Source of the DNA: an uncultured Planctomycetia bacterium
Lineage (GTDB): Bacteria; Omnitrophota; Gorgyraeia; Gorgyraeales; Gorgyraeaceae
DNA length: 64,000 nt
Reading direction: 5' to 3'
Assembly: GCA_964415355.1 (NCBI GenBank)
Contig: CAYPYS010000002.1
Location: 8,048-72,047 of the forward strand
Positions 18,706 through 61,008 of the stretch are shown in pieces (position 1 is the stretch's first letter; every line of letters begins with the position of its first letter). Below the pieces are notes generated by a model. That model was not told where the DNA came from, ran no database searches, and saw only the letters and a list, made by a program, of their open reading frames with translations. Both the position numbers and the translations under genes were made by a program.

Positions 18706-18914
18706 CGTCGGCTTTTCATCGCTCGGTAACCCAGCCACCTTATTACTTCTGATCGCCTAACTAACCCTTTGAAATATAATAGGTTACGGCTTATCACTAG
18801 TAACTTAGGTCTGTTGGCTTTGCGCCCCCTGATTTCTCTAGGGTTCGCCCTTATCGGCTACTATAAGTTTATCATAGATTAGAGGTGTTTTCAAGCCATA
18901 CGAGGAGGAGATGA

Positions 18915-24877: not shown

Positions 24878-24912
24878 CTTTACATTTCAACAACGTTAAA
24901 ATGTAAAGTTAG
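24875..24912. repeat. palindromic intergenic element copy 12 (contains pilT stop TAA)
   Basis: taactttacatttcaacaacgttaaaatgtaaagttagg. Confidence 0.85.
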
Positions 24913-29012: not shown

Positions 29013-29192
29013 CACAAGTTACTCTCTCCGCTCGTAACTTGTTTCAAAGGGGTTTCACCCCTATGACGCTACGCAATGCTCCTCTGCGTCGCATTGCTCC
29101 ATTGTTACCCCTCGAGGGGATGCAGGCATTCCCTCGAGCTCCCCAGTTGCATGGAATTAAAATTCCATGCAATGTTGAAGTGTAAAGTTAGG
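28997..29192. mobile_element. expanded (about 196-bp) structured variant of the palindromic element (MITE-like), copy E1
   Basis: repeat arms at both ends; internal hairpins caagttac/gtaacttg, ggggtttcacccc, gcaatgc/gcattgc, ccctcgag x2, gttgcatggaatt..aattccatgcaa; about 90% identical to copy E2. Confidence 0.7.
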
Positions 29193-29225
29193 CTTTTATT
29201 GACTATTCGCACAAAAAGGTGTAAA

Positions 29226-29777
29226 ATGAATATAATGGATAATAAAGGTATATTGAAACTTTCAATAATGGTCTTGTTTGCCTTGCTTATAGGCACGTAT
29301 GTCATAGGATATTTTATGTATAAAGATTATAGTGAAAAAACCGCGTATTTAAATGACCAGGCCCAGCTTGCCACGGATAGATTTAAGGAGATGGAAGACG
29401 GCATGAGGGATATTGATGTTGTCTTGTCGAACGCGACAGACGAGAACAAGATAGAGATAAGAAAGATGTTGTCACAGTTGGATTCGATGCAGGGGATCCT
29501 TAAAGATTGGGAAACGGAATACAATAAAACTGTTTCAGATCTCAAGGGTGAGATCAGCGATTTAAAAGTCAGCAGGCTCAGGAGGAGAATGGAAAAGCTG
29601 CAGGATGAGATAGATGGTTTCAAGATGGCGATGCAGGATTGGGACCTGAAGATATACGATGACAACAGGGCGTTGACCTATAAAGAAGGCATTGAAGGCG
29701 TGGACCTCGGCAAGATCTCGGTTAAAAAAAAGAGTGACGGCAAGAGAGAGCAGGAACGAGAGACCAAGAAAAAGTAA
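29226..29777 (+). CDS. membrane-anchored coiled-coil protein (unknown)
   Basis: TM helix then heptad-rich region; the upstream portion of the ORF-track call lies in element E1. Confidence 0.4.
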   Translation: MNIMDNKGILKLSIMVLFALLIGTYVIGYFMYKDYSEKTAYLNDQAQLATDRFKEMEDGMRDIDVVLSNATDENKIEIRKMLSQLDSMQGILKDWETEYNKTVSDLKGEISDLKVSRLRRRMEKLQDEIDGFKMAMQDWDLKIYDDNRALTYKEGIEGVDLGKISVKKKSDGKREQERETKKK

Positions 29778-34451: not shown

Positions 34452-34545
34452 GCTCCGTAAAAGGGCAACTTATCTGAAAGGGTAAGGCGCAAAGCCAGGT
34501 GCCTAAAGCCGCATGAAGCGGACAAGGTCGACCAGCTGCCGTAGA
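34452..34545 (+). promoter_or_regulatory. c-di-GMP-I (GEMM) riboswitch aptamer no. 2
   Basis: GGGCAACUUAUCUGAAAGGGUAAGGCGCAAAGCCAGGUGCCUAAAGCCGC matches the GEMM core; GNRA hairpin. Confidence 0.7.
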
Positions 34546-38758: not shown

Positions 38759-38956
38759 CCTAAGTTTACAATATAACACAAGTTACTCGCTTCGCTCGTA
38801 ACTTGTTTCAAAGGGGTTTTACCCCTATGACGCTACGCAATGTTTCTTTTCGTCACATTGCTCCACTGTTACCCCTCGAGGGACTGCCTGCAGCCCCTCG
38901 AGCTCCCCAGTTGCATGGAATTTTAATTCCATGCAATGTTGAAATGTAAAGTTAGC
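38759..38956. mobile_element. expanded (about 196-bp) structured variant of the palindromic element (MITE-like), copy E2
   Basis: collinear with E1; compensatory change gcaatgt/acattgc vs gcaatgc/gcattgc. Confidence 0.7.
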
Positions 38957-41368: not shown

Positions 41369-41410
41369 CCTAACTTTACATTTCAACAACGTTAAAGTGT
41401 AAAGTTAGGC
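41369..41410. repeat. palindromic intergenic element copy 21
   Basis: cctaactttacatttcaacaacgttaaagtgtaaagttaggc. Confidence 0.85.
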
Positions 41411-44258: not shown

Positions 44259-44668
44259 CTATATTCAATGTAACCAGCGAAAAAGAAGACGTTTTAAAAG
44301 CTAAGATGGAGTCTCTCAACATAAAAGAAAGAGACATAGAGGAAAGGTTTATCCGCGCGAGCAAGAAGGGCGGACAAAAGGTCAATAAGACTTCCTCGTG
44401 CGTTTATCTTAAGCACAGGCCTACGGGAATAGAGGTCAAGTGCCAGAGAGAGCGCTCCCAGGCATTAAACAGGTTTCTGGCCAGAAGGATACTCGCTGAT
44501 AAGATCGAGTCGCTCGTCCTGGGCAAAAAGGCAGCGGAGCAAAAGAGAATAGAAAAGATAAGGCGCCAGAAGAGGAGGCGCTCCCGCCGCGCAAAAGAAA
44601 AGATGCTCAGGTATAAAAAAATCCGATCTCAAAAAAAGGAGCTGCGCAGGCCGCCCGCGCTGGCCTAA
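44255..44668 (+). CDS. arfB: alternative ribosome-rescue factor ArfB (GGQ peptidyl-tRNA hydrolase with basic C-tail)
   Basis: GGQKVNKT motif; about 137 aa; K/R-rich C-terminus; stop TAA inside repeat copy 23. Confidence 0.7.
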   Translation: MTIFNVTSEKEDVLKAKMESLNIKERDIEERFIRASKKGGQKVNKTSSCVYLKHRPTGIEVKCQRERSQALNRFLARRILADKIESLVLGKKAAEQKRIEKIRRQKRRRSRRAKEKMLRYKKIRSQKKELRRPPALA

Positions 44669-44703
44669 GTTTACACTTTAACGTTGTTGAAATGTAAAGT
44701 TAG
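44664..44703. repeat. palindromic intergenic element copy 23 (last copy in window)
   Basis: gcctaagtttacactttaacgttgttgaaatgtaaagttag. Confidence 0.85.
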
Positions 44704-45018: not shown

Positions 45019-45444
45019 ATGAGAATCAGGGTATTTTTGTTATTGGCTATGGTTTTGTTTTTGAAAAACCCGGCCTTGGCTGAAGCTGGCGTGGGAGAAA
45101 AGCTGGCCGGCGTGACCATTAAAAGCACGGTTAAGGTATATGTAGCAATAACAAACATTGAAAAGACAAAGAAGAAGATCGTTGATAAGATACAAAAAAC
45201 AGATAAAAAAGAATTCAGGGAACGATATGCCAAGCTTTATGAGCTGGTAAAGGATTTGCCTTCGGATATAAAGACTACTTACAGGATCACCCCTGGCATG
45301 ACCATGGAGCAGATGGTTGAAAATGTAAGATCAGTAGATAAGAAGGCGGTATATAAAATAATAAATAGCATGTCCGATAGAACTGTTACAGAGCTTTTTA
45401 AGCAATATCTTAAGGAGATGGGCAAAAAATCCAAAAAAATGTAA
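45019..45444 (+). CDS. secreted hypothetical protein
   Basis: signal peptide ALA-EA. Confidence 0.4.
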   Translation: MRIRVFLLLAMVLFLKNPALAEAGVGEKLAGVTIKSTVKVYVAITNIEKTKKKIVDKIQKTDKKEFRERYAKLYELVKDLPSDIKTTYRITPGMTMEQMVENVRSVDKKAVYKIINSMSDRTVTELFKQYLKEMGKKSKKM

Positions 45445-45470
45445 ACTATGATTACAATTAAATGCGGAAA

Positions 45471-45510
45471 GTAAAACCTTCACGGCGAAAGCTGTGAGGG
45501 TTTTTTATTT
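45471..45510 (+). terminator. terminator cassette copy 1 (ccttcacggc gaaa gctgtgaggg plus T-run)
   Basis: hairpin with G-U wobbles plus tttttt; near-identical copies at 45972 and (minus strand) 55371. Confidence 0.6.
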
Positions 45511-45567
45511 TTGACCCCGTCGCCATAAATCCTGAGATATTGGCCGATTGGTGATCCCTGCGACTTA

Positions 45568-45596
45568 TTGACTATTTTGAAGACAGGGTGTAGAAT
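45568..45596 (+). promoter_or_regulatory. promoter TTGACT-17-TAGAAT (promoter cassette copy A, 45523-45617)
   Basis: about 95-bp block nearly identical to 47284-47387. Confidence 0.6.
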
Positions 45597-45617
45597 GAAA
45601 TTAAGTGGGAGGTGCAT

Positions 45618-45890
45618 ATGGACTGGAAGATATTTTTGGCAACGTTTAGCGCTATATTTCTTGCAGAACTTGCAGATAAGACACAGTTTGTTGGTATTGG
45701 CATGTCAGCGAAGTCAGGGAAACCTTTATCGGTTTGGCTTGGCTCTATATCCGCGTATATCATTGTTACTGCTATCACGGTTTTGATCGGAGCTACTCTA
45801 GGAAAGTACATAAAACCCGAGATCGTAAGATATACTGGCGCATCGCTATTTGTAATAATCGGAATTTTGATGTTTTTCGGGAAAATATGA
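45618..45890 (+). CDS. UPF0016 (GDT1/TMEM165) family membrane protein, single-repeat form
   Basis: ELADKTQ motif; 3 TM helices; ATG 45618 after GGGAGG. Confidence 0.6.
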   Translation: MDWKIFLATFSAIFLAELADKTQFVGIGMSAKSGKPLSVWLGSISAYIIVTAITVLIGATLGKYIKPEIVRYTGASLFVIIGILMFFGKI

Positions 45891-45971
45891 AACCTTGACA
45901 AACCTGTGATCCCGATGTAAACTATGACTACAATTAAATAATGTCCCGTGTTTGAAGGATGAAATCCCGGA

Positions 45972-46012
45972 CAATAATAAAGTAAAACCTTCACGGCGAA
46001 AGCTGTGAGGGT
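45972..46012 (+). terminator. terminator cassette copy 2
   Basis: same hairpin plus T-run as 45471-45510, preceded by the same gtaaactatgaYtacaattaaat block. Confidence 0.6.
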
Positions 46013-46038
46013 TTTTTGTTTTATATAACTCCGTGCTA

Positions 46039-46139
46039 TTACCTAACAAATATATTAGAAGTACTGTTTGTTAGGTAACTTTCCTTATTGACATTTGTTA
46101 CCTAACAATGTATACTATTTAATAGAGTGTTAGGTAACA
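46039..46139 (+). promoter_or_regulatory. operator array: four TTACCTAACAA half-sites forming two inverted-repeat pairs overlapping promoter TTGACA(46088)-17-TATACT(46111)
   Basis: 46039-46050/46067-46078 and 46097-46108/46128-46139 read directly. Confidence 0.55.
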
Positions 46140-46151
46140 AGGGGGTGCAAT

Positions 46152-46469
46152 ATGGGCGTTATAAAAGGAGCCTTGAAAGAAGAGCTTGAAAATTCTCTGC
46201 GCATGAAGAAGGAATATGAAAAGGCCTTAAAGGAGCTTCCGGATGGATGCTTGGCCGAAAAGAAGATACGCGGCCATAAATATTATTATTTAGTCAAAAG
46301 GTTCCATAAGAAGGTCAAATATATCTATAAAGGTAAGCTTTTAAAGGAAGAGGTCGCTAAATACAACGACGCTAAGATCCTAAGGGCTAAATACAGAAAA
46401 TTGCTGTCGCAGGTTAAAAAGCAGATAAGGTTTTTAAGGAGTAGTCTACGTGGAAAAGAATCAATATAA
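46152..46469 (+). CDS. small basic hypothetical protein (candidate regulator/antitoxin of the downstream nucleotidyltransferase)
   Basis: overlaps downstream gene by 20 nt; strongly regulated promoter. Confidence 0.35.
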   Translation: MGVIKGALKEELENSLRMKKEYEKALKELPDGCLAEKKIRGHKYYYLVKRFHKKVKYIYKGKLLKEEVAKYNDAKILRAKYRKLLSQVKKQIRFLRSSLRGKESI

Positions 46470-47124
46470 ACTATGCCTCGAGGTCCTCAAGCGGTTTAAT
46501 AAAGCAGGTATTCTGGACGGATTCATTTTGATAGGCAGCTGGTGCCTGTATTTTTACAAGGCCTATTTCAAGAAAACCCCATATATAGATGTTTCTACGC
46601 TTAGAACCAGGGATATAGATTTTTTAATACCTATTCCGCCAAAGATTAGGAAAAGCGTTGATGTGCCAGAGCTACTCAAGGATCTTGGATTTGTGACGGA
46701 TTTTAAAGGAAGCAGAGGCTACATAAAGCTCGATCACCCTGACCTTATATTGGAATTTTTAGTACCGGAAAAAGGCAGAGGGGATGACAGGCCTTACAGG
46801 TTGCCACAATTAGGTATGAACGCTACGTCATTAAGGTTTCTAAGTTTTTTAATGGATAACGTTATCCGAATCAAGGTAGAAGATTTTTATATCAATGTAC
46901 CGCATCCCGCGAATTTCGCATTGCATAAACTTATTATTTTTCAGAGGAGAACAAAGGAGTATAAGGTTTTAAAAGATAAAAATACAGCTATTGGAGTTCT
47001 AAGGGCATTGCTCGATAAAGGCGAAGGCCATATAATCAAAAAGACACTGGGATCTGTTCCTCAGAAGTGGAAGAAAAAGATTATCAAAGGATTGGAGGGA
47101 GAGAAAGCGCTTCATATTTTCTAA
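46450..47124 (+). CDS. nucleotidyltransferase-fold protein (AbiEii/MNT-like GS...RxxDIDF motif)
   Basis: LIGSW...TLRTRDIDFLIP. Confidence 0.4.
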   Translation: MEKNQYKLCLEVLKRFNKAGILDGFILIGSWCLYFYKAYFKKTPYIDVSTLRTRDIDFLIPIPPKIRKSVDVPELLKDLGFVTDFKGSRGYIKLDHPDLILEFLVPEKGRGDDRPYRLPQLGMNATSLRFLSFLMDNVIRIKVEDFYINVPHPANFALHKLIIFQRRTKEYKVLKDKNTAIGVLRALLDKGEGHIIKKTLGSVPQKWKKKIIKGLEGEKALHIF

Positions 47125-47220
47125 TCTCATCTCAGTCGTACGTTCGAAGGGGTTCACTGCGACTCTAAACAATTAAAACCTTCTTTTGTCAACCGTACCA
47201 CCAAACAAAAGGAGGTTTTA

Positions 47221-47322
47221 ATGCTTATAGCCAAGGTTTTCCGACTTATCCTGATAACCATAATCTTCATAATAGCTTACCTTCCGATCACTATAAATCC
47301 TGAGATATTGGCCGATTGGTGA
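47221..47322 (+). CDS. 33-aa hydrophobic peptide (MLIAKVFRLILITIIFIIAYLPITINPEILADW), type I toxin-like or leader peptide
   Basis: RBS AGGAGG sequestered in hairpin aaaaccttcttttg..caaaaggaggtttt; paralogue on minus strand at 54869-55030. Confidence 0.35.
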   Translation: MLIAKVFRLILITIIFIIAYLPITINPEILADW

Positions 47323-47335
47323 TCCCTGTGACTTA

Positions 47336-47364
47336 TTGACTATTTTAGAGGATGAGGGTAGAAT
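47336..47364 (+). promoter_or_regulatory. promoter TTGACT-17-TAGAAT (promoter cassette copy B, 47284-47387)
   Basis: near-identical to copy A. Confidence 0.6.
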
Positions 47365-47372
47365 GAAATTAA

Positions 47373-48161
47373 ATGGGCAGCGCATATATGAATAAGAAAC
47401 CATTAAGCAAGATGACTCAAGATGAAATAAAAGAGGCAGTTAAAGAAAAATACAGCAAAGTGGCAAAAGAACCCTGCGTTTCGTTTAACTTCCCGGTAGG
47501 AAAGGCTTTTGCTTTAAAAGTAGGTTATCCTAAAGATATACTTGGCAGACTTCCTCGATCCATGTATGAATCCTTTACAGGCGCCAATAATCCTCAACCT
47601 TTTGTGGAGTTAAAAGAGGGAGAAACAGTCTTAGATTTAGGGTGTGGGGCAGGATTAGACCTTTATTTTTATGCAAAAGCAGTAGGAACTAATGGTAAGG
47701 TCTATGGCTTAGATATTTCGCAAGATATGATCAGTAAGGCAAGAGATAATATGGAAGCAGCAGGAGTTAAGAATGCAGAAATTAAATGCGGCCACTCCGA
47801 TAGCCTTCCTTTTGAAGATAATTTTTTTGATATTGTAGCCTCAAATGGAATCTATAATCTATCACCTAACAAAGAAAAAGTTATGAAAGAAGTATTCAGG
47901 GTATTGAAGCCCGGAGGTAGAACTGTTTTTAGTGAAGTTGTTCTAAAAGACAGCCTCCCGGAAAGCATAAAAAAGAATATTGATGACTGGTTTCGGTGTA
48001 TAGGTGGCGCATTGCCTGAAAGAGATTTTTTAGCACTTATGGAAAAGGTTGGATTTAGGAATATAGAGGTTATATCAAAAGTCAGGAATGCCAGAACAGG
48101 TCATAAGTTAGCCATTTGTGCCAACATCCGCGGTTATAAGGGAGGAGTTTTAAATGGATAA
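47373..48161 (+). CDS. ArsM-like class I SAM-dependent methyltransferase
   Basis: VLDLGCGAGLD motif I; DIVASNGIYNLSPNKEKVMKEVFRVLKPGGR matches the ArsM/UbiE-like core, but the GCGNP Cys motif is replaced (TGANNP); alternative start 47388. Confidence 0.55.
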   Translation: MGSAYMNKKPLSKMTQDEIKEAVKEKYSKVAKEPCVSFNFPVGKAFALKVGYPKDILGRLPRSMYESFTGANNPQPFVELKEGETVLDLGCGAGLDLYFYAKAVGTNGKVYGLDISQDMISKARDNMEAAGVKNAEIKCGHSDSLPFEDNFFDIVASNGIYNLSPNKEKVMKEVFRVLKPGGRTVFSEVVLKDSLPESIKKNIDDWFRCIGGALPERDFLALMEKVGFRNIEVISKVRNARTGHKLAICANIRGYKGGVLNG

Positions 48162-48489
48162 GCTTGCAGGAGAAGCGCTTAAATTGGTTGATATGGTGGA
48201 TTATCAAGCTGGGTCTGTGGTGAGCAAGCAGATAATAAAGAAAGACACAGGAACAGTGACTTTGTTTGCCTTTGATAAGGGACAGGGGTTGAGTGAACAT
48301 ACGGTGCCGTTTGACGCCCTGGTTTATATTTTTGACGGTGAGGCAGAGATCACTATAGATGGCAGGCCTAACTTAGTAGGGTCAGGCAATATGATAATCA
48401 TGCCGGCTAATAAACCGCATTCTGTAAAAGCAGCAAAGCGGTTCAAGATGCTTCTTGTAATGATAAAGGAAAAGAACTTAGGTATCTAA
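48154..48489 (+). CDS. cupin-domain protein
   Basis: G(X)5HXH-like EHTVPFDALVYIFDGEA...PANKPHS pattern. Confidence 0.55.
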   Translation: MDKLAGEALKLVDMVDYQAGSVVSKQIIKKDTGTVTLFAFDKGQGLSEHTVPFDALVYIFDGEAEITIDGRPNLVGSGNMIIMPANKPHSVKAAKRFKMLLVMIKEKNLGI

Positions 48490-48881
48490 TGAAAAGACTG
48501 ATAGTATTAATGATAATATTATTATCTATATTTGGATTTTTATTATTTAATAGCAAGGCGCTTCTGATCTACAGGGTAACTGAAGTCAGAGAAGGGGATG
48601 TTCATACGTCGCGCAAGGTGTTCTTTGATTGGGAGACGTTTTTGGATTACCTGAAAGATATTCCTGATAGAGTCATGGGGAGAGTTTTTTTAAAGGGCGT
48701 CAAAGCATCCGGAGATATTAAATTGACCGACAGGGAGCAGGAAAGCATTGGAGAGATAATAAAAGACGTGGGAGTATTGACAGATAAAATAGAAGATAAG
48801 GAAATCGCTGAAGAGATAAATAAGTTGATGGAGAATTACAAGGGCCTGGATGGCCTGATGGAAGAACTTGAACAAAAATAA
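48489..48881 (+). CDS. membrane-anchored hypothetical protein
   Basis: N-terminal TM helix. Confidence 0.35.
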   Translation: MKRLIVLMIILLSIFGFLLFNSKALLIYRVTEVREGDVHTSRKVFFDWETFLDYLKDIPDRVMGRVFLKGVKASGDIKLTDREQESIGEIIKDVGVLTDKIEDKEIAEEINKLMENYKGLDGLMEELEQK

Positions 48882-49422
48882 CAAACGAAGATCAGCTAGG
48901 GGTATCATGAATAAGAAAGGAAATAGCTCTATTATGTTTATATCTACGGTTATCATGGGAATATTGGCTGTGGTGTTGTTATTAGTAGCTTATTATAAAG
49001 GCGTGCATATGACAGGGCTGAATCAGGCCATGCGCATGACCATGCAGATATTGCCTTTGCTTATCTTTGCCTTTATAGTGGCAGGCATGGCGCAGGCGCT
49101 TTTGCCTCACGAGACCATATCCAGATGGATAGGTGAGGAGTCAGGTATGAAGGGCGTATTGATCGGGACAGTGGCCGGGGCAATGACACCTGGCGGGCCG
49201 TATTTGAGTTTACCGATAGTCGCGGGGCTTTTGAAGTCCGGCGCGAGCATAGGCGTGATGGTGGCGTATATTGCCGGCTGGAGTCTTTTGAATATCAGCA
49301 GATTGCCTATGGAGATAGGTATACTCGGGTGGAGATTTACTTTGGTGAGATTTTTGAGCGTTTTAATACTTCCGCCCATAGCCGGGGCCTTCGCGCATTA
49401 TATCAGCAAGGTTTTGAGATAG
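48868..49422 (+). CDS. DUF318-type permease subunit (half-size membrane permease)
   Basis: multi-TM; TPGGPY motif. Confidence 0.45.
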   Translation: MNKNNKRRSARGIMNKKGNSSIMFISTVIMGILAVVLLLVAYYKGVHMTGLNQAMRMTMQILPLLIFAFIVAGMAQALLPHETISRWIGEESGMKGVLIGTVAGAMTPGGPYLSLPIVAGLLKSGASIGVMVAYIAGWSLLNISRLPMEIGILGWRFTLVRFLSVLILPPIAGAFAHYISKVLR

Positions 49423-49916
49423 ACAGATCGTCATTGCGAGATCAATTGCATTGATCCTGCCAGAGTAACTAATAAAGCAAAAGATTAGTATATAGGGGGA
49501 GATTAAGGTTTGCGTAGAGGGTTTTAGCCATATAAACTTGGTTTCTTTATGATTAAGCCTAACCGCCTATAATGTATCTTATGTTAACTTGGTTATATGA
49601 GAAGAAAAGCCATAAGTCTATATGGCTCAATGAGTTGCGTATTTTTGTTAATTGTCTGTGAATAACTCTTTTTCTTCTTTGGTTGGTATATTGCTTGTCA
49701 TTCCCGCTTACACGGGAATCTTAATAGGTAGGTTATTATTACGCGTGTTTTGGCTTATTATAGCCCTTTATAGACCAGATTATTACTAGGTATAGCCTAA
49801 TTACTGCTTCTCCCCCGCTTGTCATCCTCGCGAAAGCGGGGATCCATTAGAAGCTATATTTTTACCCCTTATAAACCCATCGACCCCTAAAAACCAGTAG
49901 TCGATATAAACCTATA

Positions 49917-50453
49917 TTAATCTAATATCAGACGAAATGATTTTGTTCTCTCAAAAACAGTATTCCTTAGCTCCCTATGAACTCTTTGCAAAATTGGCAA
50001 TAGTCTAATTCTTCTAAAGTTATCCCAATCGTCAAATGTTCGATAATCATTATTAAAAACCATATTGTTTAATTCAGATTGCAATTGGGCGATTAAATCT
50101 ACTATCTCTGTACCATAATACAATCCCATCAGACCAAGCTGTAAATAGCTTTCTCTCGTAGCTCTATTAAAATTATCCAAAGAGACTTGTCTTCTTTGGA
50201 TAATTTCAGGATTATTGTTAGTTATGCTACCCTGTTGTATCTGTAGATTAATATTGGCAAGTTCCCACATCGAAATCAACATGAGACACAGACTATTCAA
50301 AATGTTTGTAGCTGTGTTATCCTTAGCAATAAGGTATTTAGTCTTTATGTCTCTTTCAAAGTGAAATTTGGCAATTTGTATAGTAGTGTAAGCAACAATA
50401 ATAGGCGATATAAGGCCGAATACTATTGTTTTAATAATTGCATCGGAAAACAT
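49917..50453 (-). CDS. hypothetical protein with N-terminal TM helix
   Basis: no recognisable motifs. Confidence 0.35.
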   Translation of the reverse strand: MFSDAIIKTIVFGLISPIIVAYTTIQIAKFHFERDIKTKYLIAKDNTATNILNSLCLMLISMWELANINLQIQQGSITNNNPEIIQRRQVSLDNFNRATRESYLQLGLMGLYYGTEIVDLIAQLQSELNNMVFNNDYRTFDDWDNFRRIRLLPILQRVHRELRNTVFERTKSFRLILD

Positions 50454-50571
50454 AATATCCCTACCAATCCTTTTTTAAATACTTATAGTGTTTGTAATAC
50501 TACCTAACAACCCCGCCCCTATCAACCTCTTCCTTGCTGTAAGCTGTGCTAAAATAAGACACTGCTATCGA

Positions 50572-51420
50572 TCACGCTTTAATATTACTGACCTCCCGAA
50601 CAAGTCTAATCCCAGTATACATTCTATCTAAGAATTGTCTTTCTAGTTTCATTTTCTCATACCTATTCCTTGGATGATGGGAAAGATTACGTACTCCTTT
50701 GTAAGATATTAAATCATTGCATAGCGTAACATCAAAATACTTCTTTTGCTTCTTTCGAGCACCGCCTTTATTCCTCCAATTAGGAGCCGATAACAGCTTA
50801 ATTTTTGTTTCAAAATTGTAATTTTGCACCTCTCCAATTGTCGGCACTATTTTTTTTGCCCTTGCCGCTGCTTCCGCTAATGTATCCACTAATCCTTCTA
50901 TTAGCTCAGTTATATCTCTAATCGCATCGATAAAGTTACCTTCGTTGAATTTTTCGCAAATCTTAACAATGTCTTTCCTGTATCTGCCCGGACGATGCAT
51001 CTCTGCTTCTCCGATTCTCATATTGCATTGCACGGCATTGCGATGCACGATAACGTTATTATCACACACCAATAAGATGCCTAAGCCATATTTCTTGGCT
51101 AACGTTAAAAAGCTATGAGAAAAAGAAGTTTCCTTATCATCTGTAGAATGAGGAAAGGCCAAAAATATTTCAATTCTTTCTTGGTTGATCAAGCATTCCT
51201 TAACAAAAGTCTCAAAATATTCTTGTAATTGTGGTTTTTCTTGTATTTCTATAACTAATACTGCTGAGCCGCGTTTATGACACACTAACGCTGGTTTGAA
51301 TTGATATTGGGGAGCAAGTGGTTTTTCGAATGAAATTCTTCTATAGGTTTTCTTTTCATAATATTTAATGAGCGTCTTAGCAATAGACCAAAGATTCTCG
51401 CTTAAAAATTGAAATTTCAT
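50572..51420 (-). CDS. hypothetical protein (unknown; co-operonic with ParB-like gene)
   Basis: 3-nt gap to upstream gene. Confidence 0.4.
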   Translation of the reverse strand: MKFQFLSENLWSIAKTLIKYYEKKTYRRISFEKPLAPQYQFKPALVCHKRGSAVLVIEIQEKPQLQEYFETFVKECLINQERIEIFLAFPHSTDDKETSFSHSFLTLAKKYGLGILLVCDNNVIVHRNAVQCNMRIGEAEMHRPGRYRKDIVKICEKFNEGNFIDAIRDITELIEGLVDTLAEAAARAKKIVPTIGEVQNYNFETKIKLLSAPNWRNKGGARKKQKKYFDVTLCNDLISYKGVRNLSHHPRNRYEKMKLERQFLDRMYTGIRLVREVSNIKA

Positions 51421-51422
51421 AA

Positions 51423-52364
51423 TTAAATAATTTTAGTTATAATCTTATATAATTCTTTCAGCTTATTTGCAACTTCTTTGTCTTCTTTGATCTTGCTGTC
51501 CATCCTTTTTAATTTATTAACTAGAGACTCTATTTCTTTTTTTAAATTCCTTTCTTGGTAAGCATCGGCGACAGATTCATTGTAAGCATCTTCTATCCTA
51601 TATTTTGGATTGTTTATTAACTTTTTAATTATAGGGATTGCTTTTTTACTTGGAACGCCTGCTTTCTCAGAACGAGCTATTTTGCTAACATCTCTTAATT
51701 TAACAATGTTAGATATTACACCATCTTTATACTTTTTAAAAAATCTTTGCATTATTTTTTCTTTAGAGTTACTTTCTAAAACTTCGGGCATATATCTTTC
51801 TATTGCCCTGCTTGCTTTCATGGCCTCCAAAAAGAAATCCTCCGAAAATTTTTGTTCTGCCTTGGGTTTTGAAAGCTCTTTTCTTAATAGATTTAAATAT
51901 TTCGTGGGCAAACTTAGTATATCAAAAGCTCTTTTTGCAGTTGCGGGAGTAATGCCTGTTACCGCTGTTATGTCTTTCAAAGAATAAGGCTTATTTTCTT
52001 TTTTTAATAAATTCTCTATTTCTTTAAGTTTCAGTGCTGTTGCAAACAAGTCCCATTGAACACGAACATTATGTATATTGAACATTCTTAAAATATTCTC
52101 TAGCCTAGTTGGCCTTGGTTCAATTATGGTAGGAACGCGAGATAAATTTAACTTCTTAGCACACAACCAGCGCCTTTCCCCATCAAGTAATATATACCTA
52201 TTACTTTTAACATCTTCATAAATAGCTAAAGGAACTCTAATGCCTACTTTTTGTATAGAATTTAATAGGACTTGGAGCTCTTCTTCTCTAAAAATTATAC
52301 GTGGATTATCTGGATTTCTCTTGATTTTGTCTGGATTAATATTGGCTAATCTGGTTCCTGACAT
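51423..52364 (-). CDS. ParB/Srx-fold (ParB-like nuclease domain) protein
   Basis: NPDNPR...LLNSIQKVG...RYILLDGERRWLCAKKL...VP ParB N-terminal signature. Confidence 0.6.
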   Translation of the reverse strand: MSGTRLANINPDKIKRNPDNPRIIFREEELQVLLNSIQKVGIRVPLAIYEDVKSNRYILLDGERRWLCAKKLNLSRVPTIIEPRPTRLENILRMFNIHNVRVQWDLFATALKLKEIENLLKKENKPYSLKDITAVTGITPATAKRAFDILSLPTKYLNLLRKELSKPKAEQKFSEDFFLEAMKASRAIERYMPEVLESNSKEKIMQRFFKKYKDGVISNIVKLRDVSKIARSEKAGVPSKKAIPIIKKLINNPKYRIEDAYNESVADAYQERNLKKEIESLVNKLKRMDSKIKEDKEVANKLKELYKIITKII

Positions 52365-52384
52365 AACCTGTCTCCTTATTTAAT

Positions 52385-53191
52385 TTAAAAATTTGTTATT
52401 ACTAATTCTGGGACTTTTTTTCTCTTCTTTACATTCCCTGCTATCAAGCTTCTTCTTTTAACAAGAGTTAAATTGAAATTCTTATACAACCTTCTTATAT
52501 AATCGTGCTCTGCATTGCTCATGATAATCTTGCATCCTTTTTTATCAAGCTCAACAACAGCATCTTTTAAGCGATTTTGATCTTTTAATGAAAATATTCT
52601 CGAATTATATTCTATAAAACCATTATTTTTATGTGAAGTAGTATAGGGAGGGTCTAAATAAATTAAATCACCTTCCGTAGTATCTTTTACTGCTTTTTCA
52701 AAATCAAGACCTCTTATAGTTACATTTTTTAATATCTTACTAACATTTTTTAATTTCTCTTCGTCGCAAATCGTCGGATTATCATATCGGCCTATAGGAA
52801 CATTAAATCTACCTTTGGGATTAACTCTATACAAACCGTTCCAGCATGTTTTATTAAGGTAGATAAATCGGGCAGCCCTTCTTAAATTATTTGACAATCT
52901 CTGTGAACGAATGTTGTAATAGTATTTCTTCTGGTAGGGCATATTTTTTAAAAATTTTATAACTCCGCCAACATTTCTTTTTATTTGTTGATAGCTATTT
53001 ATTAATTCTGAATTTAAGTCTGATAAATATGCTTCTTTAGGTTCTAATGCAAAAAACAAAGCACCACTACCCAAAAAGGGCTCAAAATAGCGGTTGTAAT
53101 TTTTTGGAATAATTTTTAGTAGTTCAGGTAATAGAGCTTTTTTGCCACCTGCCCATTTCAAAAAAGGCCTAGTAGTAACTTTTTTACTCAT
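52385..53191 (-). CDS. Dam-family (alpha-class) N6-adenine DNA methyltransferase
   Basis: FLKWAGGKK...EPFLGSGA motif I; DPPY motif IV. Confidence 0.85.
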   Translation of the reverse strand: MSKKVTTRPFLKWAGGKKALLPELLKIIPKNYNRYFEPFLGSGALFFALEPKEAYLSDLNSELINSYQQIKRNVGGVIKFLKNMPYQKKYYYNIRSQRLSNNLRRAARFIYLNKTCWNGLYRVNPKGRFNVPIGRYDNPTICDEEKLKNVSKILKNVTIRGLDFEKAVKDTTEGDLIYLDPPYTTSHKNNGFIEYNSRIFSLKDQNRLKDAVVELDKKGCKIIMSNAEHDYIRRLYKNFNLTLVKRRSLIAGNVKKRKKVPELVITNF

Positions 53192-53242
53192 TTTTGTTTT
53201 TTTAGTCTATTTTTAAAATAAATAGAGCTATGGTTCCGTCTG

Positions 53243-53878
53243 TTAAGGCTCTACTCCTAAAATTAACAAAGGTACTGGTGGGTTATTACGGCCATGACGT
53301 AGAATATTGTATACTTCTCCTTCATAATAAGCTACGCCACTTGACATCTGAGACTGCATTTTCTTTGTTGGTAGGATTTCAACACCAAGATTTATGACCC
53401 CGCCAGAATAAAAAAGCAAGTGCTTAACAAATAAGTCAAAAGCAACAAAGGCATATTTGCCAAACTGTACTTCTACGGCAACTTGTTTTTTTACAAAATC
53501 AGTTTGCTTATATGATGCAATTGGGTGCTTAGTACCGTTTTTAATCAGAAATTCTTTCTGTTTTTTGTAAGATAAAGGAACTAATTCTTGCATTATTTTA
53601 TAATCGGTTGTTACATAGTACTGATAGCGACTTTCTTTCCACCCATGAGTTCTAAATTTATTCCTGAATTTTTCATTAAGCGCTATAGGGCTATATAGAG
53701 GCTTGCCTTTCATGGTTTTCTCTTTGCTGATCTTTGTCATTAGCTTTTTAGCGTCTATGCTGTTTATGGTTTTGATAATCTCATTATACAAACTCTTGTG
53801 ATGGACTATTAAATACTCTTCTCCGTTTAGGTGGGAATGTTTCTGTGCTATACGCATACATAGGCTCCTTTCATCCAC
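53243..53878 (-). CDS. putative type II restriction endonuclease (BglII/BamHI-like arrangement EVQFGK..LGVEILP)
   Basis: position between two MTases; E-x-Q / hydrophobic pattern similar to the BamHI E111-E113 region. Confidence 0.4.
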   Translation of the reverse strand: MDERSLCMRIAQKHSHLNGEEYLIVHHKSLYNEIIKTINSIDAKKLMTKISKEKTMKGKPLYSPIALNEKFRNKFRTHGWKESRYQYYVTTDYKIMQELVPLSYKKQKEFLIKNGTKHPIASYKQTDFVKKQVAVEVQFGKYAFVAFDLFVKHLLFYSGGVINLGVEILPTKKMQSQMSSGVAYYEGEVYNILRHGRNNPPVPLLILGVEP

Positions 53879-54852
53879 TCTTTAGGAATTCTGGCCATTT
53901 TGTCATTAGGAGAAGGATTGTGTATGGGTTTATTGATAGGCCGAAGCTTTAGTTTATTGTTTTTTAACATTAATAAGCGTTTTTTGGCGGTTTCTATATA
54001 TTTTTTGTTGCTGTCTATTCCTATAGCATTTCTGTTGTTTTTCATAGCTGCGATTAATGTCGAGCCAACACCTGCATATGGATCTAATACCCAGCTGCCT
54101 TCTTTTGTTAAAGCGAGGATGCACCGTTCTACAAGTTCGACAGGAAATTGACAAGGATGAGTAGTTTTTTCAGGATGGTTTGCTTTAACATTTGGTATGT
54201 TCCAAAAGCCTTTTTCCCAATCTTTGCTTAAAATCTCCCATACATCAGAAGGATTTTTTCCATTAGGATTTCCAGAAAGCTTTCCTCTCTTGGGGCCCTT
54301 GAAATGTTTTTTTCCAGGATATTTTGCAGGTATACGTACATTATCTAAATTGAAAATATAGTCATTTGATTTAGAAAACCATAGGATTGTTTCGTACCTG
54401 CCTGAGAATCTCTTGGATGCATGTAGTCCGTGCCCAAAATGCCAAATTAATCTATTTCTAAGTTTTAAGCCGTGTTTTTTAAATATATTATAATAAAAAA
54501 TATCAAGTGGGAATATCTCTCCTTTATTAACGTAATTGCCTATTTGCCAACAAATACTGCCTCTTTTAGACGTTAACTTAACAAGCTGCTCGATGACTCT
54601 ACCTTGTTTATCTAAATACCGCTCTATTGATTCTTTATTTTCGTATTCCTTCCCTAGGTTATAAGGGGGAGAAGTAATTATTAGATCGAATTTTCCTTTA
54701 TCTAGTTTCTCTAAATTTCTGAGAGTGTCTCCTAGTATAAGCTTGGTCTCTGTATTTTTATACATATTGTTTATTTTAGTTAAATTAGAGCTCGCCATTT
54801 TCTTGGATTCTCCTGCTGAAGCTTGCCCAAAAAGATCATTAATTAATGTCAT
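53848..54852 (-). CDS. beta-class N6-adenine/N4-cytosine DNA methyltransferase
   Basis: SPPY motif IV near N-terminus; DPYAGVGST motif I near C-terminus; start set at second Met after AGGAGG. Confidence 0.75.
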   Translation of the reverse strand: MTLINDLFGQASAGESKKMASSNLTKINNMYKNTETKLILGDTLRNLEKLDKGKFDLIITSPPYNLGKEYENKESIERYLDKQGRVIEQLVKLTSKRGSICWQIGNYVNKGEIFPLDIFYYNIFKKHGLKLRNRLIWHFGHGLHASKRFSGRYETILWFSKSNDYIFNLDNVRIPAKYPGKKHFKGPKRGKLSGNPNGKNPSDVWEILSKDWEKGFWNIPNVKANHPEKTTHPCQFPVELVERCILALTKEGSWVLDPYAGVGSTLIAAMKNNRNAIGIDSNKKYIETAKKRLLMLKNNKLKLRPINKPIHNPSPNDKMARIPKEWMKGAYVCV

Positions 54853-54868
54853 TTTACACCTCCTTAGG

Positions 54869-55030
54869 TTAATAGTCAATAGCGCTGACTATATTATCTA
54901 ATTCTATATAATAGGACATACTATCTCTTGGGTTTCTTTCAAATGTTTTTGGATTTATTGTTATAGGCAGGTAGGTGATTATAAAGATAGCTGTTATTAG
55001 GATGCTTTTAATAAACTTGGTTAGAAACAC
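54869..55030 (-). CDS. 53-aa hydrophobic peptide (VFLTKFIKSILITAIFIITYLPITINPKTF...), paralogue of 47221-47322
   Basis: GTG start after AGGAGG inside hairpin aaaaccttctttac..gtaaaggaggtttt; shares LIT-IIFII-YLPITINP. Confidence 0.3.
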   Translation of the reverse strand: MFLTKFIKSILITAIFIITYLPITINPKTFERNPRDSMSYYIELDNIVSAIDY

Positions 55031-55223
55031 AAAAACCTCCTTTACGGTTATGTAAAGAAGGTTTTAATTATTTTATAGTCGCAGTTCCCCCTTCCTTAAC
55101 GTACGACTTGAGGATTTTCTTCTCAGGCATATATTGAAGACTAAAGCCACAGGCATCCTGCAAGGGTACGCACTACTATAAGTTGCACCAAAATAGGACG
55201 CCTGCTATTCCGCGTTCTATTGC

Positions 55224-55346
55224 TTATGCTTTTTTGATTCTTTCAACAACAGCGGTTCTTTTCTGCCTTCTCGCTCTTGCTACAGGAATAAATCTACCTG
55301 TTATAGCGCTTCTTCCAGCCAGCCTTGTTTTACTTTTCTTGCTCAT
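55224..55346 (-). CDS. 40-aa basic peptide MSKKSKTRLAGRSAITGRFIPVARARRQKRTAVVERIKKA (speculative)
   Basis: RBS gaaaggaggtgg; directly follows terminator cassette copy 3. Confidence 0.25.
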   Translation of the reverse strand: MSKKSKTRLAGRSAITGRFIPVARARRQKRTAVVERIKKA

Positions 55347-55370
55347 TGCAATCCACCTCCTTTCTCAAAA

Positions 55371-55410
55371 AACAGAAAAACCCTCACAGCTTTCGCCATG
55401 AAGGTTTTAC
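55371..55410 (-). terminator. terminator cassette copy 3 (minus strand)
   Basis: reverse complement = gtaaaaccttcatggcgaaagctgtgagggtttttctgtttttt. Confidence 0.45.
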
Positions 55411-55614
55411 TTTTTTAACGTCCGGGATTTACCCCTTCTTAACTCGGGACTTTATTTGATTATACTTATATTTTACATGCCAGGGGTGGGTTTGTCAAGG
55501 ATTTGCACTCTCGTTAACTCATTTGCAAATCACTTTTTAACCCCGTCTGCCCTCGCCTACCCTTTTCTCTCTATCTAAGACACTGCATCATCGAAGCCTT
55601 AAAGCTTTTCCTCG

Positions 55615-55797: not shown

Positions 55798-56160
55798 CTA
55801 CAATATACTAAACATAACCACTACCCCTAAAACCACTGTAAAAACCCCATATACCCGCCAGGCGATGAGAGGGCGGCTGGTGAAGTAGTTGAATGTGGAT
55901 ATTAGGGTGTTCCTGGGGGATATGAGTATGAATAGGGCTTTTATTAGGGATATTATGCCTAAGAGCTTTATGAAGAGCTGGAGGCGTGATGCAGGGTGAG
56001 CCCAGAGGAATAATATGCCTGCTAGTAAAGGCAGTATGAATAGGGGTTTTGTTGGCTTTATTAGCTTGGTATAAAAGGTTTTTGATTTTAAGGGGAATAT
56101 GAGAAATACTAGGCCTGCGAGGAGCCAGAAGACGGAAATTACTAATAGAAATATTTTCAT
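55798..56160 (-). CDS. small polytopic membrane protein (4 TM helices)
   Basis: hydrophobicity pattern. Confidence 0.45.
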   Translation of the reverse strand: MKIFLLVISVFWLLAGLVFLIFPLKSKTFYTKLIKPTKPLFILPLLAGILFLWAHPASRLQLFIKLLGIISLIKALFILISPRNTLISTFNYFTSRPLIAWRVYGVFTVVLGVVVMFSIL

Positions 56161-56168
56161 ATGTCACT

Positions 56169-56804
56169 TTACTCTTTTGGTTCAGTCAAAGTTTCTATTT
56201 CTTCATGGACTGTCTCTGCAGCTTCGGTTGCGACTTCTGCTGGCTCGGGTATGCTTTTTGCTGCAGGTCTCGTTCCCCCAGAGATTTCATGTAAAATAAT
56301 TTTCTTGGTTGCTTCATACTCTGTTTCCGTGATCAATTTCTTATCATATAAAGACTGTAATTGAACTAATTTATCTTCAAGCGTCGCATCTTTTTTTACT
56401 GCTCTTGAAGCGGAAGTCGCTGTAGCATTAGTTAATCTCTTCATCTCTACATGGACGCTTTCCGGGACAAGTTTCCATTGAGCGCCTGTCATAGCATCTA
56501 CTCCCCATCCTATCAAACCACCAAGAAGAATGTTTCCAGCAACAGCACCGCTTATAACATGCATCAATAACACATGTTCTGTTTCATAACCTTCTTTGGT
56601 AAATATAAGGTTATGATCTGTTTTTCTTCGCAGTTTTAAAGTCGTGGGTGTCTTATGGGAACCTGTTCCATCTACGCTAACTGTAGCACCTGGAGGATTA
56701 GTAGAAACCGGGACTCTTTGGTTTGGACCACAAGTAATTGTAGCACAACCAGACATGGTGAGAATAAAAACCATCAAGACTGCACAGATGAAGATTTTCT
56801 GCAT
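56169..56804 (-). CDS. lipoprotein with PEGA-like and C-terminal SHOCT domains
   Basis: lipobox MSGC; LVQLQSLYDKKLITETEYEATKKIIL SHOCT-like; start trimmed to MQKIF after RBS. Confidence 0.5.
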   Translation of the reverse strand: MQKIFICAVLMVFILTMSGCATITCGPNQRVPVSTNPPGATVSVDGTGSHKTPTTLKLRRKTDHNLIFTKEGYETEHVLLMHVISGAVAGNILLGGLIGWGVDAMTGAQWKLVPESVHVEMKRLTNATATSASRAVKKDATLEDKLVQLQSLYDKKLITETEYEATKKIILHEISGGTRPAAKSIPEPAEVATEAAETVHEEIETLTEPKE

Positions 56805-56948
56805 ATAGTGTTCCTTTCTTTTTATCTTCATTATGATATAACAACAAAAAGCAACCCCGACATTATGCCAAGATTGCTTTATATTATAGAAATATTGACT
56901 TCTTTCCCACTCCCACCCCATTGTGGTTATTGTATATATGATACTACG

Positions 56949-56977
56949 TTAGGCTTATTGAGTCAAGGTGAGGCGTG
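56949..56977 (-). promoter_or_regulatory. minus-strand promoter TTGACT-17-TATCAT within a conserved 45-bp module (copy 1)
   Basis: near-identical module at 60950-60998. Confidence 0.5.
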
Positions 56978-57042
56978 TTATGTACTAAATGTGGATAGCG
57001 GAAGACAGTGAGTAAAGGTTAGGTTAACTGTGTAGATAGAAT

Positions 57043-59277
57043 TTATTTGGCATATAAATGTTTTCTAACCAGGTCAAAATCATCTAATGCATCATGCGGC
57101 ATTGCAGCGCCATATCTTTCTATAATAGCTATATACTCCTCCCTTGTATCTCCTTGGACATTATCAGCTATTATAAAAACCGTTCTTTCAGGGATTTCAA
57201 TGCGTTTTCTTATTTCATCTTCTTGAGTCTTGAAATATACAATAATGACCGGAACTTCGTGCGGAGAAATATTACTAATTCCATGTCTAATTTTTTCTAA
57301 TCCAGCTTCATCCGCTAATATGTTACCTTCAAATAAGCTTGCTCCATTAAATAAGACAGGAGTTGCTTCTATTAAAGAAGAAGCGTGTTTATCATATTGC
57401 AGCTCAATATCCTTTTGAACAAAAGCAAGAACCATGGCAGCAATAAGCATTGGCGTGACTTCTTCTTTCGCTACAAGTTCTTGCATTAAAGGCAATTCAG
57501 ATGGACTAAGACCGATATCGTTAAGAACCTCTTGCGGTAATTCAGATAGGTCTAAATCAAAACCTGCAAAGTCTGCTGGTGAAAATTCAAATAAGTTTAG
57601 ACCAAAGCCAGCCCTGTACGCATGCCCTCCGCCCCATCTTCCTTTAGGTCCATTTATACATAAGAAGCTGACATCGATTTCATCAAAATCAGATCTCCGC
57701 GCCAAAAGTACAGCCATGCTATTATCTTCTGCTATATAATAATGTACCAATACTCTGTTGCCAAACTGACCATTATCATTAAGAAGGCCGAATACTATCT
57801 TGTGCACGAGAAGGGTAACGTTACCTTTTTCTGCCGGAATTTTATAAAAATAAACCTTCCTGTTAGAAGCAAGGAATTCTTTTATAGAGCCATCAACCTC
57901 GTTCATGATACCTCTGGACCACTCAAAGAAATCATCTCCGAATCTCCTCTGCATCGTTTCTTCAAGCCCTCTCCTTAAATCTTCAAAGGAACCGCTAGAA
58001 GAGATAACCTGAATGATTTCTTTCATTGCTCCGCGCCTTTTCGCGAGTTCTTCCGGTTTCCAATTAAATAAATAAGTCCCGCATAGATTAAGTAGCCCTG
58101 AAACATGCCTAGCTTCTTCTGAATCAAGATCTTTGTTTAGACTTGGGAAATTTGAAGAAGAATAATCGGCGTAAAGAGACAGTTGTTTTAAGAAATGATA
58201 CCAAGGATCACCTTCTGTCTTCATCAGGTCTGCTTCAAATGCACCTGAAGCATAGCTATCAGGATCCGCTACTTCTCCGATAATAAGGTGGACATTTATA
58301 AGAAATATTTTATCTCTTTCGTATTTATCAATACAATTGTTAAATGTTCCGATGTTATTAGCAGCTATAAACTCCTTGCTCCATTTATGGTGATCCTGCA
58401 CAATGATAGTATCGAAACCAAAAGAATCGCTTAAACTGCCTCTTTTATATCTATCAGGCTCGGGAAGAAAAACATCCCCTACAAAAAGAGCCCTTTTACC
58501 CTTTAATTCTGAAAAATCAATCATCCTTTCATCTTCTTTATAGTGTGACAAAGGCAAAAGACATATATAAAGCTTCCCGTCGTGCCTCGCATCATTAGGG
58601 TCAGTGATGAATTCTACGTCTCTACCTTTGCCTCCTGCTTCATGAACCAGTCTGCGGTATACTGCTGCAGAAAAAGTAAAAGAATCTCCATCTATCGGTA
58701 TTTTTTGATTGTCATGGGGCGATATAACGACAATAGAATACTCATCAATAATTTTCTCTATCAAGTTGTCCAATAGCTGCTTTATCTTATTAAGATTACT
58801 AGCTTTATTTTCCCATTCATGCGCCAGATACTCTTCTGTTTCTATGACACCCTTGTCCCTATTCTGAATCCTGCGAAACTCACTTTCTTCTTTAGGCCAA
58901 AATAATCCATCTTTATATATTGCATAAGTATTTGTTTCAGCGTGATGTATCCAGGCATTTCCATGGACATCCTCTATCACTTGAAGATCTTCATCTTCTA
59001 TAAACTTAGATAACTCAGGGTCTTTTCTTAAACTTTCAAGAAACTGCTGAGGCGAAATGTTTGTTTTATTCTTCAGTATTTTTTGATAAGCGGCTGATAG
59101 TGATGCCCAGAAATATCTAGAGATTGTATTGCTATCACTATTATTAAAATCAAGCTCTTTTCTAAGATGGGTTTTATTGGATAACTCTATACCATAGACT
59201 GCAGCGTTAAAGAAAAGTACTCCAGCTGCAATTATTGATATAATTTTATAAGTTAAGGGTTTACTAAAGTTTTTCAT
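57043..59277 (-). CDS. large exported/membrane-anchored DHH-DHHA1 family phosphoesterase with about 250-aa N-terminal extension
   Basis: DGD, DHH (IVQDHHKW) and GGGH (GRWGGGHAYRAG) motifs; N-terminal TM/signal. Confidence 0.5.
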   Translation of the reverse strand: MKNFSKPLTYKIISIIAAGVLFFNAAVYGIELSNKTHLRKELDFNNSDSNTISRYFWASLSAAYQKILKNKTNISPQQFLESLRKDPELSKFIEDEDLQVIEDVHGNAWIHHAETNTYAIYKDGLFWPKEESEFRRIQNRDKGVIETEEYLAHEWENKASNLNKIKQLLDNLIEKIIDEYSIVVISPHDNQKIPIDGDSFTFSAAVYRRLVHEAGGKGRDVEFITDPNDARHDGKLYICLLPLSHYKEDERMIDFSELKGKRALFVGDVFLPEPDRYKRGSLSDSFGFDTIIVQDHHKWSKEFIAANNIGTFNNCIDKYERDKIFLINVHLIIGEVADPDSYASGAFEADLMKTEGDPWYHFLKQLSLYADYSSSNFPSLNKDLDSEEARHVSGLLNLCGTYLFNWKPEELAKRRGAMKEIIQVISSSGSFEDLRRGLEETMQRRFGDDFFEWSRGIMNEVDGSIKEFLASNRKVYFYKIPAEKGNVTLLVHKIVFGLLNDNGQFGNRVLVHYYIAEDNSMAVLLARRSDFDEIDVSFLCINGPKGRWGGGHAYRAGFGLNLFEFSPADFAGFDLDLSELPQEVLNDIGLSPSELPLMQELVAKEEVTPMLIAAMVLAFVQKDIELQYDKHASSLIEATPVLFNGASLFEGNILADEAGLEKIRHGISNISPHEVPVIIVYFKTQEDEIRKRIEIPERTVFIIADNVQGDTREEYIAIIERYGAAMPHDALDDFDLVRKHLYAK

Positions 59278-60928: not shown

Positions 60929-60958
60929 GTCTACCCCCTCTCTGTGTTGATCATATAT

Positions 60959-60987
60959 ATGATACTACTTTGGGTTTATCAAGTCAA
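60959..60987 (-). promoter_or_regulatory. minus-strand promoter TTGACT-17-TATCAT (conserved 45-bp module, copy 2)
   Basis: 24-nt leader to the lipopeptide start. Confidence 0.5.
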
Positions 60988-61008
60988 GATGGGGAAAGCT
61001 CGGGGGAT

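Follow-up and report, generated by a model that had tools for sequence, protein, structure and literature searches.

The closest described systems to the locus reported here are tandem riboswitch or attenuator leaders and small H-type pseudoknot riboswitches (preQ1-I/II, SAM-II and SAM-V), together with the protein-dependent antitermination leaders, namely the ribonucleic antiterminator (RAT) targets of BglG/LicT and the PyrR and ANTAR dual-hairpin targets. The RAT, PyrR and ANTAR hairpins overlap the 5′ arm of the terminator. The locus lies in a 64,000-nucleotide (nt) stretch of DNA from an uncultured bacterium assigned to the Omnitrophota (contig CAYPYS010000002.1, positions 8,048 to 72,047; hereafter the window), in which a 36-mer that folds as a hairpin, GTAAAACCTTCAYGGCGAAAGCTGTGAGGGTTTTTT, occurs exactly three times, compared to zero copies expected from 100 shuffles. 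Comparison of the window with related sequences indicates, with a probability that we put at roughly 70%, that this 36-mer, termed T1, terminates a short leader RNA proximal to its promoter, and most likely does so conditionally (as an attenuator).

In all three copies a 14-base-pair (bp) stem is closed by a 4-nt GAAA loop, preceded by an A-tract and followed by a T-run, so that each presents a stable, G+C-containing stem-loop with a U-tract directly 3′ of it on the transcribed strand. Copy 3 ends in TTTTTC and has a C-to-T change at the Y position. A preliminary description of this DNA had the number of copies and their strands right, but its coordinates for the second and third (45972 and 55371) were off by 10 and 4 nt, respectively. 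It had also argued from the G-U wobbles that the hairpin functions as RNA in one orientation only, and folding bears this out: the three T1 regions reach −22.8, −29.0 and −27.2 kcal/mol on the transcribed strand, against −13.6, −21.2 and −17.0 kcal/mol on the complement, with z-scores of −3.6 to −5.8. Each hairpin contains two G-U pairs (three in copy 3), and the complementary strand folds worse because these pairs turn into A-C mismatches. The 36-mer is thus predicted to be an intrinsic (Rho-independent) terminator hairpin acting in this orientation. The structure is kept among relatives. An alignment of nine T1 sequences has 97% of its cells paired, compared to 24–56% for slid partners, four pairs have both partners changed, and RNAalifold arrives at the same hairpin on its own. 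Among the nine sequences there are several distinct versions of the upper stem and loop, and the lower part of the stem, AAAACCUUC/GR(R)GGUUUU, is conserved in sequence as well as in pairing.

T1 does not stand alone. A full unit consists of a σ70-type promoter (P1), about 15 nt of leader, a weak hairpin (H1) with a conserved GAAGGGG-type loop, an 11-nt A/U-rich linker and T1, usually followed by a paralogous module of a second hairpin, a linker and a stem that sequesters the Shine-Dalgarno sequence (H2-T2). In the window, H1 has the form GTCCCG...GAAGG...CCCGGAC and is situated between promoter and terminator. The form of H2 is GTCGTA...GAAGGGG...CTGCGAC; an A/U-rich linker of 11–12 nt separates it from T2, whose stem uses the same AAAACCTTC arm as T1, here paired with the AAGGAGG directly ahead of the point where a short hydrophobic open reading frame (ORF) starts. 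As judged by these components, the window holds two full leader arrays (unit Y, 45895–47364, + strand; unit X, 55498–54851, − strand) and a decayed one (unit Z, 45439–45617). In a 12-kb scan, the P1 elements of copies 2 and 3 rank among the best promoter-like sites. A covariance model (R1) finds four full H-T units (H1-T1 or H2-T2) and one partial unit (copy 1, 29 bits) in the 64 kb, and its matches are confined to 45.4–47.4 and 54.9–55.5 kb. A dispersed repeat of the repetitive extragenic palindrome (REP), miniature inverted-repeat transposable element (MITE) or Correia-like type that happens to carry a terminator was rejected on these grounds: R1 units are few, they occupy one locus type, and none occur in L012–L015, L038 and L039.

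The family comprises at least 18 H-T units from at least nine lineages, the window and eight others, and 94.7% of the alignment cells are paired. The 5′ arm AAAACCTTC of T is invariant in 18/18 units; its partner varies between GAGGG, GAAGG and GGAGG, with the pairing always kept. Pairs 4 and 6 of the H stem switch between H1 and H2, from C-G to G-C and from G-C to A-U. Of the 16 units measured, 15 have a linker from H to T of 11–12 nt that is 82–100% A/U. Folding energies are −4 to −9 kcal/mol for the weak H stems and −14 to −24 kcal/mol for the strong T stems. The loop GAAGG and the CCUUC of the T 5′ arm, both invariant segments, can form 5–6 bp worth −4.6 to −6.2 kcal/mol. One unit with a long linker was seen, in L006 (1389–1453, − strand), where H1 and T1 are set apart by a 54-nt insertion that folds as two extra hairpins.

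The preliminary description had treated the hairpin, together with a block gtaaactatgaYtacaattaaat before the first two copies, as a 3′ cassette of the upstream genes that abuts their stop codon. The block is indeed present (45441–45463 and 45917–45939), and a diverged form also precedes T1 copy 3. However, it is not a gene 3′ end: by its sequence it is the P1 −10 element plus the transcript start, that is, promoter and leader sequence. It overlaps a stop codon only at copy 1, where the TAA at 45442–45444 is the 5′ half of what was the −10 hexamer TAAACT and now serves as the stop codon of a gene for a 141-amino-acid (aa) protein. At copy 2 the block begins 26 nt past the stop codon (45888–45890), and these 26 nt hold the TTGACA −35 box.

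The special position of copy 1 finds its explanation in L002, a sequence syntenic with the window at 80–90% identity. Past the homologue of the 141-aa gene, L002 carries a complete P1-H1-T1, then H2 and P2, a further promoter. Copy 1 is best described as a deletion derivative of such a full unit; relative to L002, the −35 region has been lost, with the gene now fused to the −10 box, and H1 has been lost too. The segment at 45520–45617, previously called a promoter cassette, is H2 with its loop exchanged for the 3′ end of a stub ORF, and derives from an arrangement of the 47135–47364 type. DNA present in the window in addition to L002 consists of P2-GDT1-P1-H1-T1 and a 105-aa/224-aa gene pair. 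The promoter-gene-terminator organisation suggested earlier, as seen around the GDT1 gene, is accordingly real to the extent that repeated promoter and terminator pieces flank differing genes, but this modular look is, on the sequence comparison, a product of leader-array duplication and partial deletion. The flanked genes, for which variation between strains had been proposed as a check, keep an identical order with identical units in 14 contigs of the same population, and variation appears only against the more distant L002.

Comparison between lineages links the leader to the genes that follow it. In seven lineages (L006, L007/L016, L010, L017, L019, L020/L021 and L036) it precedes VCBS-like genes that encode proteins of no more than 52–84% identity. 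In L006, a metagenome contig, H1, T1, H2 and T2 precede a 289-aa ORF; homologues of its product carry the source label VCBS repeat-containing, Candidatus Omnitrophota, and contigs with six of these homologues bear the same leader upstream. The order P1-H1-T1(-H2-T2)-ATG is found on one strand in L007, L010 and L019, and L006 and L017 have the same array on contigs that stop short of P1. The position of P1 is fixed in seven lineages (window copies 2 and 3, L002, L007, L010, L019, L020 and L036). For L007, L010 and L019, P1 is the sole promoter-like site on that strand, with T1 between it and the gene, an arrangement in which T1 is most likely a conditional terminator because it separates the genes from their only recognisable promoter. 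L020 and L036 contain a gene between T1 and H2, with ribosome-binding site (RBS) and ATG 19–20 nt past the U-tract. Taken with window copy 3, this gives three cases in which an RBS and start codon follow T1 within 19–29 nt and no promoter intervenes, so that the gene must be transcribed through T1. In L020 the inserted gene has a homologue in third position of the L007 operon. Scans of genomes and metagenomes with a degenerate pattern returned unrelated G+C-rich terminators with GNRA loops from other organisms (L001, L003, L004 and L005), which were set aside, and a scan of viral contigs with the degenerate pattern gave 0 matches.

These comparisons also bear on the earlier view that the copies are plain 3′ terminators, ending the upstream units (the 141-aa gene, the GDT1 gene and the − strand genes at 55798–59277) and spread by duplication of neighbouring DNA. 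Every copy does lie downstream of a gene on the same strand with no other strong terminator between, copy 1 keeps a perfect T1 without promoter or H1, and any intrinsic terminator would halt incoming transcripts. However, the unit is tied to its downstream genes across lineages, the upstream neighbours differ, and in L019 the upstream gene is on the opposite strand. In addition, the unit has a conserved promoter and H1 of its own, and an invariant 5′ arm with a fixed linker exceeds what a terminator needs. The assignment to upstream genes was therefore abandoned, and we regard plain termination as an unlikely account of the family; stopping transcripts from upstream is probably a real but secondary role, a by-product, of each T1 copy.

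A stand-alone small RNA (sRNA) gene is improbable as well. P1-H1-T1 would then specify a trans-acting sRNA of about 90 nt, independent of the genes downstream. The own promoter and strong terminator, and the H1 loop and leader sequence kept across lineages, would suit such a gene, and leader RNA ending at T1 would build up regardless. Against this, genes begin 19–29 nt past T1 without a promoter in three lineages, and the H2-T2 paralogue clearly appears cis-acting, as it sequesters the Shine-Dalgarno (SD) sequence of the next ORF. No complementarity to a target was found, and the few copies are tied to one locus type. Very improbable is a DNA-level role, with the H and T inverted repeats as protein-binding or recombination sites of a mobile cassette system and RNA folding incidental: genes do stand between T1 and H2 in window units X and Y, L020 and L036, deletion junctions fall in or beside H2, and restriction-modification and further accessory genes are nearby, but the stems retain G-U pairs that become A-C mismatches on the other strand, the T-runs, SD sequestration and promoter placement suit RNA function, no recombinase lies beside the units in the window, the gene inserted in L020 is an ordinary operon member elsewhere, and gene content is constant among close strains (the 14 same-population contigs).

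Several narrower possibilities were rejected. Leader-peptide attenuation drops out because the short ATG-initiated ORF overlapping H1 is seen in copy 2 and L002 but in neither copy 3 nor the others. A type I toxin-antitoxin system does not fit, as the hydrophobic ORFs are signal-peptide stubs and the supposed sRNA is similar, not complementary, to the ORF leader. CsrA-type sites fail because GGA is missing from some H loops. An integron attC reading of the unit finds no attC-like architecture, and no integrase is encoded among the 20 ORFs scanned at 43–56 kb.

Returning to the conditional leader terminator, we infer that termination at T1 depends on a signal and that GAAGG:CCUUC pairing takes part. 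By default, transcription would end at T1 to give an RNA of about 90 nt, with read-through once a signal blocks the hairpin. The GAAGG of the H loop would pair with the invariant CCUUC of the terminator 5′ arm, either as a pseudoknot or as an alternative pairing, perhaps with a ligand or protein to stabilise it. Formed across the A-rich linker, it would disrupt T1 and also expose the SD sequence of the second module, in which T2 would be a translational gate made from the same module as T1. RNAalifold indicates that the GGG of the H1 loop can pair with a 3′ CC(C/U), which would hide the loop and is a candidate off state. A protein bound to H is an equally possible trigger. In related bacteria, the array heads the operon of a VCBS-like secreted (envelope) protein and its partners. 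In the window, all that is left of the VCBS-like gene is signal-peptide stubs, behind which come a second promoter and accessory genes.

However, several points weigh against this interpretation. Promoter use, termination and read-through are predictions. Where the next gene is served by a promoter of its own, as at window copies 1 and 2 and in L002, T1 may be only an insulator or terminator. The leader matches no Rfam family and has no named ligand or protein partner, and neither an R1 match nor the leader was found at the more distant VCBS-like homologues (L012–L015, L038 and L039). The covariation in the H stem reflects a single historical event, because it stems from one split between H1 and H2. 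Since GAAGG and CCUUC are invariant, their pairing is without covariation support, and the H1 variant CAAGG of L010 weakens it without compensation. Finally, H does not overlap T, and so the two do not form a simple mutually exclusive antiterminator.

A more far-reaching proposal is that Omnitrophota-type bacteria have a new class of small RNA, riboswitch-like or protein-responsive, in which H1 and H2 act as the sensor. The GAAGGGG loop and the anti-Shine-Dalgarno-like CCUUC would join in an H-type pseudoknot over an A-rich linker of fixed length, one signal would relieve T1 and T2 in tandem before envelope-protein genes, and the array would provide homology for the swapping of accessory and defence genes. 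We offer this as speculative and rather doubtful.

The features of the window are collected in Table 1. Genes inserted between T1 and H2 are a 40-aa basic ORF at copy 3 and a 105-aa/NTP_transf_8 (nucleotidyltransferase) pair at copy 2. As the 40-aa ORF lacks its own promoter, it can be transcribed only through T1 copy 3; it has no family match, and NCBIfam and PADLOC returned no match for the 40-aa, 105-aa, 224-aa or 141-aa proteins. The window ORFs of 33 and 53 codons align with the signal-peptide region of VCBS-like proteins, which identifies them as stubs of a VCBS-like gene; neither a full-length VCBS-like gene nor its operon partners were found in the window. On the + strand, a methyltransferase/cupin/permease operon lies downstream of P2. 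On the − strand, the second promoter precedes a type II restriction-modification system with Dam and ParB_N genes. This cluster (51423–54879) encodes an N4/N6 methyltransferase, a BglII-like restriction endonuclease and a Dam-like methyltransferase, then a ParB_N protein, and would be driven by the second promoter that replaces the VCBS-like gene. At 46038–46138, four GTTACCTAAC/GTTAGGTAAC copies form two inverted pairs around a strong promoter (TTGACA-17-TATACT, 46088–46116), and this array at the 105-aa/NTP_transf_8 promoter looks like an autoregulated operator.

Table 1. Positions of leader components and other repeated elements. Promoters are given as −35 box, spacer length in nt and −10 box.
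Feature	Position	Strand	Remarks
P1 remnant of unit Z (−10 TAAACT, transcript start)	45439–45463	+	−35 box deleted
T1 copy 1 (unit Z)	45471–45506	+	Hairpin 45473–45504 plus T-run; H1 deleted
H2 deletion derivative, stub-ORF 3′ end and P2	45520–45617	+	86% identical to 47288–47387
P2 of unit Z, TTGACT-17-TAGAAT	45568–45596	+	Predicted to drive GDT1-family gene 45618–45890
P1 of unit Y, TTGACA-17-TAAACT	45895–45923	+	Promoter scan, 10/12 matches
H1 of unit Y, GTCCCG...GAAGGAUG...CCCGGAC	45943–45972	+	Folding, R1
T1 copy 2 (unit Y)	45982–46017	+	Hairpin 45984–46015 plus T-run
H2 of unit Y	47135–47163	+	R1, H2-T2 module 74.5 bits
T2 of unit Y	47175–47219	+	AAAACCUUC... pairs with SD AAGGAGG directly 5′ of ATG 47221
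Stub ORF of unit Y, 33 codons	47221–47322	+	N-terminal similarity to L006, L007, L017, L020 and L036 proteins
P2, TTGACT-17-TAGAAT	47336–47364	+	Predicted promoter for methyltransferase operon, from 47373
P1 of unit X, TTGACA-17-TAAAAT	55498–55470	−	11/12 matches; joint-best with 46088–46116 in 12-kb scan
H1 of unit X	55420–55450	−	Folding, R1
T1 copy 3 (unit X)	55410–55375	−	Hairpin 55408–55377 plus T-run
40-aa basic ORF between T1 and H2 of unit X	55224–55346	−	RBS and ATG 29 nt past T1 copy 3
H2 of unit X	55107–55078	−	R1, H2-T2 module (55107–55031) 79.1 bits
T2 of unit X	55065–55032	−	Predicted to sequester SD before GTG 55030
Stub ORF of unit X, 53 codons	54869–55030	−	Signal-peptide remnant of VCBS-like gene
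Second promoter of unit X, TTGACT-17-TAAAAT	54851–54879	−	Ahead of type II restriction-modification genes
37-nt palindrome, examples	8851–8887, 12048–12084, 24875–24911, 41371–41407, 44666–44702		
37-nt palindrome in L002	3363–3401, 5075–5111		

The window contains other repeats and RNA elements. A family of 37-nt palindromes, TAACTTTACA-N17-TGTAAAGTTA, is represented by 19 strict copies at 84–44702, in both orientations and 0.7–6 kb apart, which often finish 8–17 nt before the RBS and ATG of a + strand gene and have no Rfam match. Their ends resemble the R″/R′ boxes of integron attC sites, but the mixed orientation and the lack of an integrase among the 20 ORFs scanned at 43–56 kb led us to reject this assignment. 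Three cyclic di-GMP-I riboswitch aptamers lie within 35 kb (2491–2577, +; 34454–34543, +; 18722–18859, −), with Rfam scores of 73, 62.5 and 54.4 bits. A 195-nt direct repeat (28997–29191 and 38761–38955) is 89% identical, and a P2-like promoter (TTATTGACTATT...TAAAAT) follows at 29196 (29196–29235); the two together are possibly another repeated leader. Five tandem coding repeats of 261–276 nt (...WDFGDG... type) occupy 4525–5622 of a + strand gene, and beyond copy 3 a 64-nt direct repeat, 75% identical, lies in two regions that are intergenic or upstream of genes (56910–56973 and 60931–60994). Several metagenome contigs of the same population break at or beside leader units, L025 inside H2-T2 of unit Y and L028 about 15 nt past T1 copy 1, and the contigs L031–L035 begin 65–240 nt upstream of T1 copy 3. 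Such breaks are expected if repeats confuse assemblers, and the leader repeats account for the metagenome assembly breaks at this locus.

With these data, an apparent shared gene 3′ end is reassigned as the terminator of a 5′ leader, and a compact candidate regulatory RNA is added to a poorly studied uncultured phylum. If the switch model is true, transcriptional and translational control would come, unusually simply, from one duplicated module. For the leader, no Rfam family matched at its gathering score, and at E ≤ 10 the list contained no riboswitch family, only sub-threshold generic leaders with terminators; the match to PyrR is weak (24.8 bits versus a gathering score of 54) and covers only the generic terminator. 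A literature search for Omnitrophica riboswitches found nothing relevant. Judged by sequence and predicted folding, the hairpin is an ordinary intrinsic terminator, and the leader array is a previously undescribed candidate for a cis-regulatory RNA.

Integrons and other repeat-flanked cassette arrays likewise place short repeated modules between different accessory genes, but the units here carry promoters and terminators, arose by duplication and deletion, and have neither an attC-type site nor an integrase beside them. T1 shares with intrinsic terminators the 13–15 bp G+C-containing stem, short loop, preceding A-tract, following U-tract and strand-specific G-U pairs; it differs in keeping the sequence of its lower 9 bp across lineages, with an invariant 5′ arm, and in its location about 90 nt past its own promoter instead of at a gene end. 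As in the RAT, PyrR and ANTAR leaders, a small conserved hairpin, possibly the site of a regulatory protein, lies upstream of a leader terminator, although here H is separated from T by 11–12 nt. In riboswitch and attenuator leaders, too, a promoter is followed by a small conserved hairpin, a terminator and an ORF, and further shared features are a second module that hides the SD sequence, an A-rich linker of fixed length and a loop complementary to a downstream segment. No sequence relationship between the leader described here and any of them was found, and it differs from them in a candidate sensor hairpin that does not overlap the terminator.

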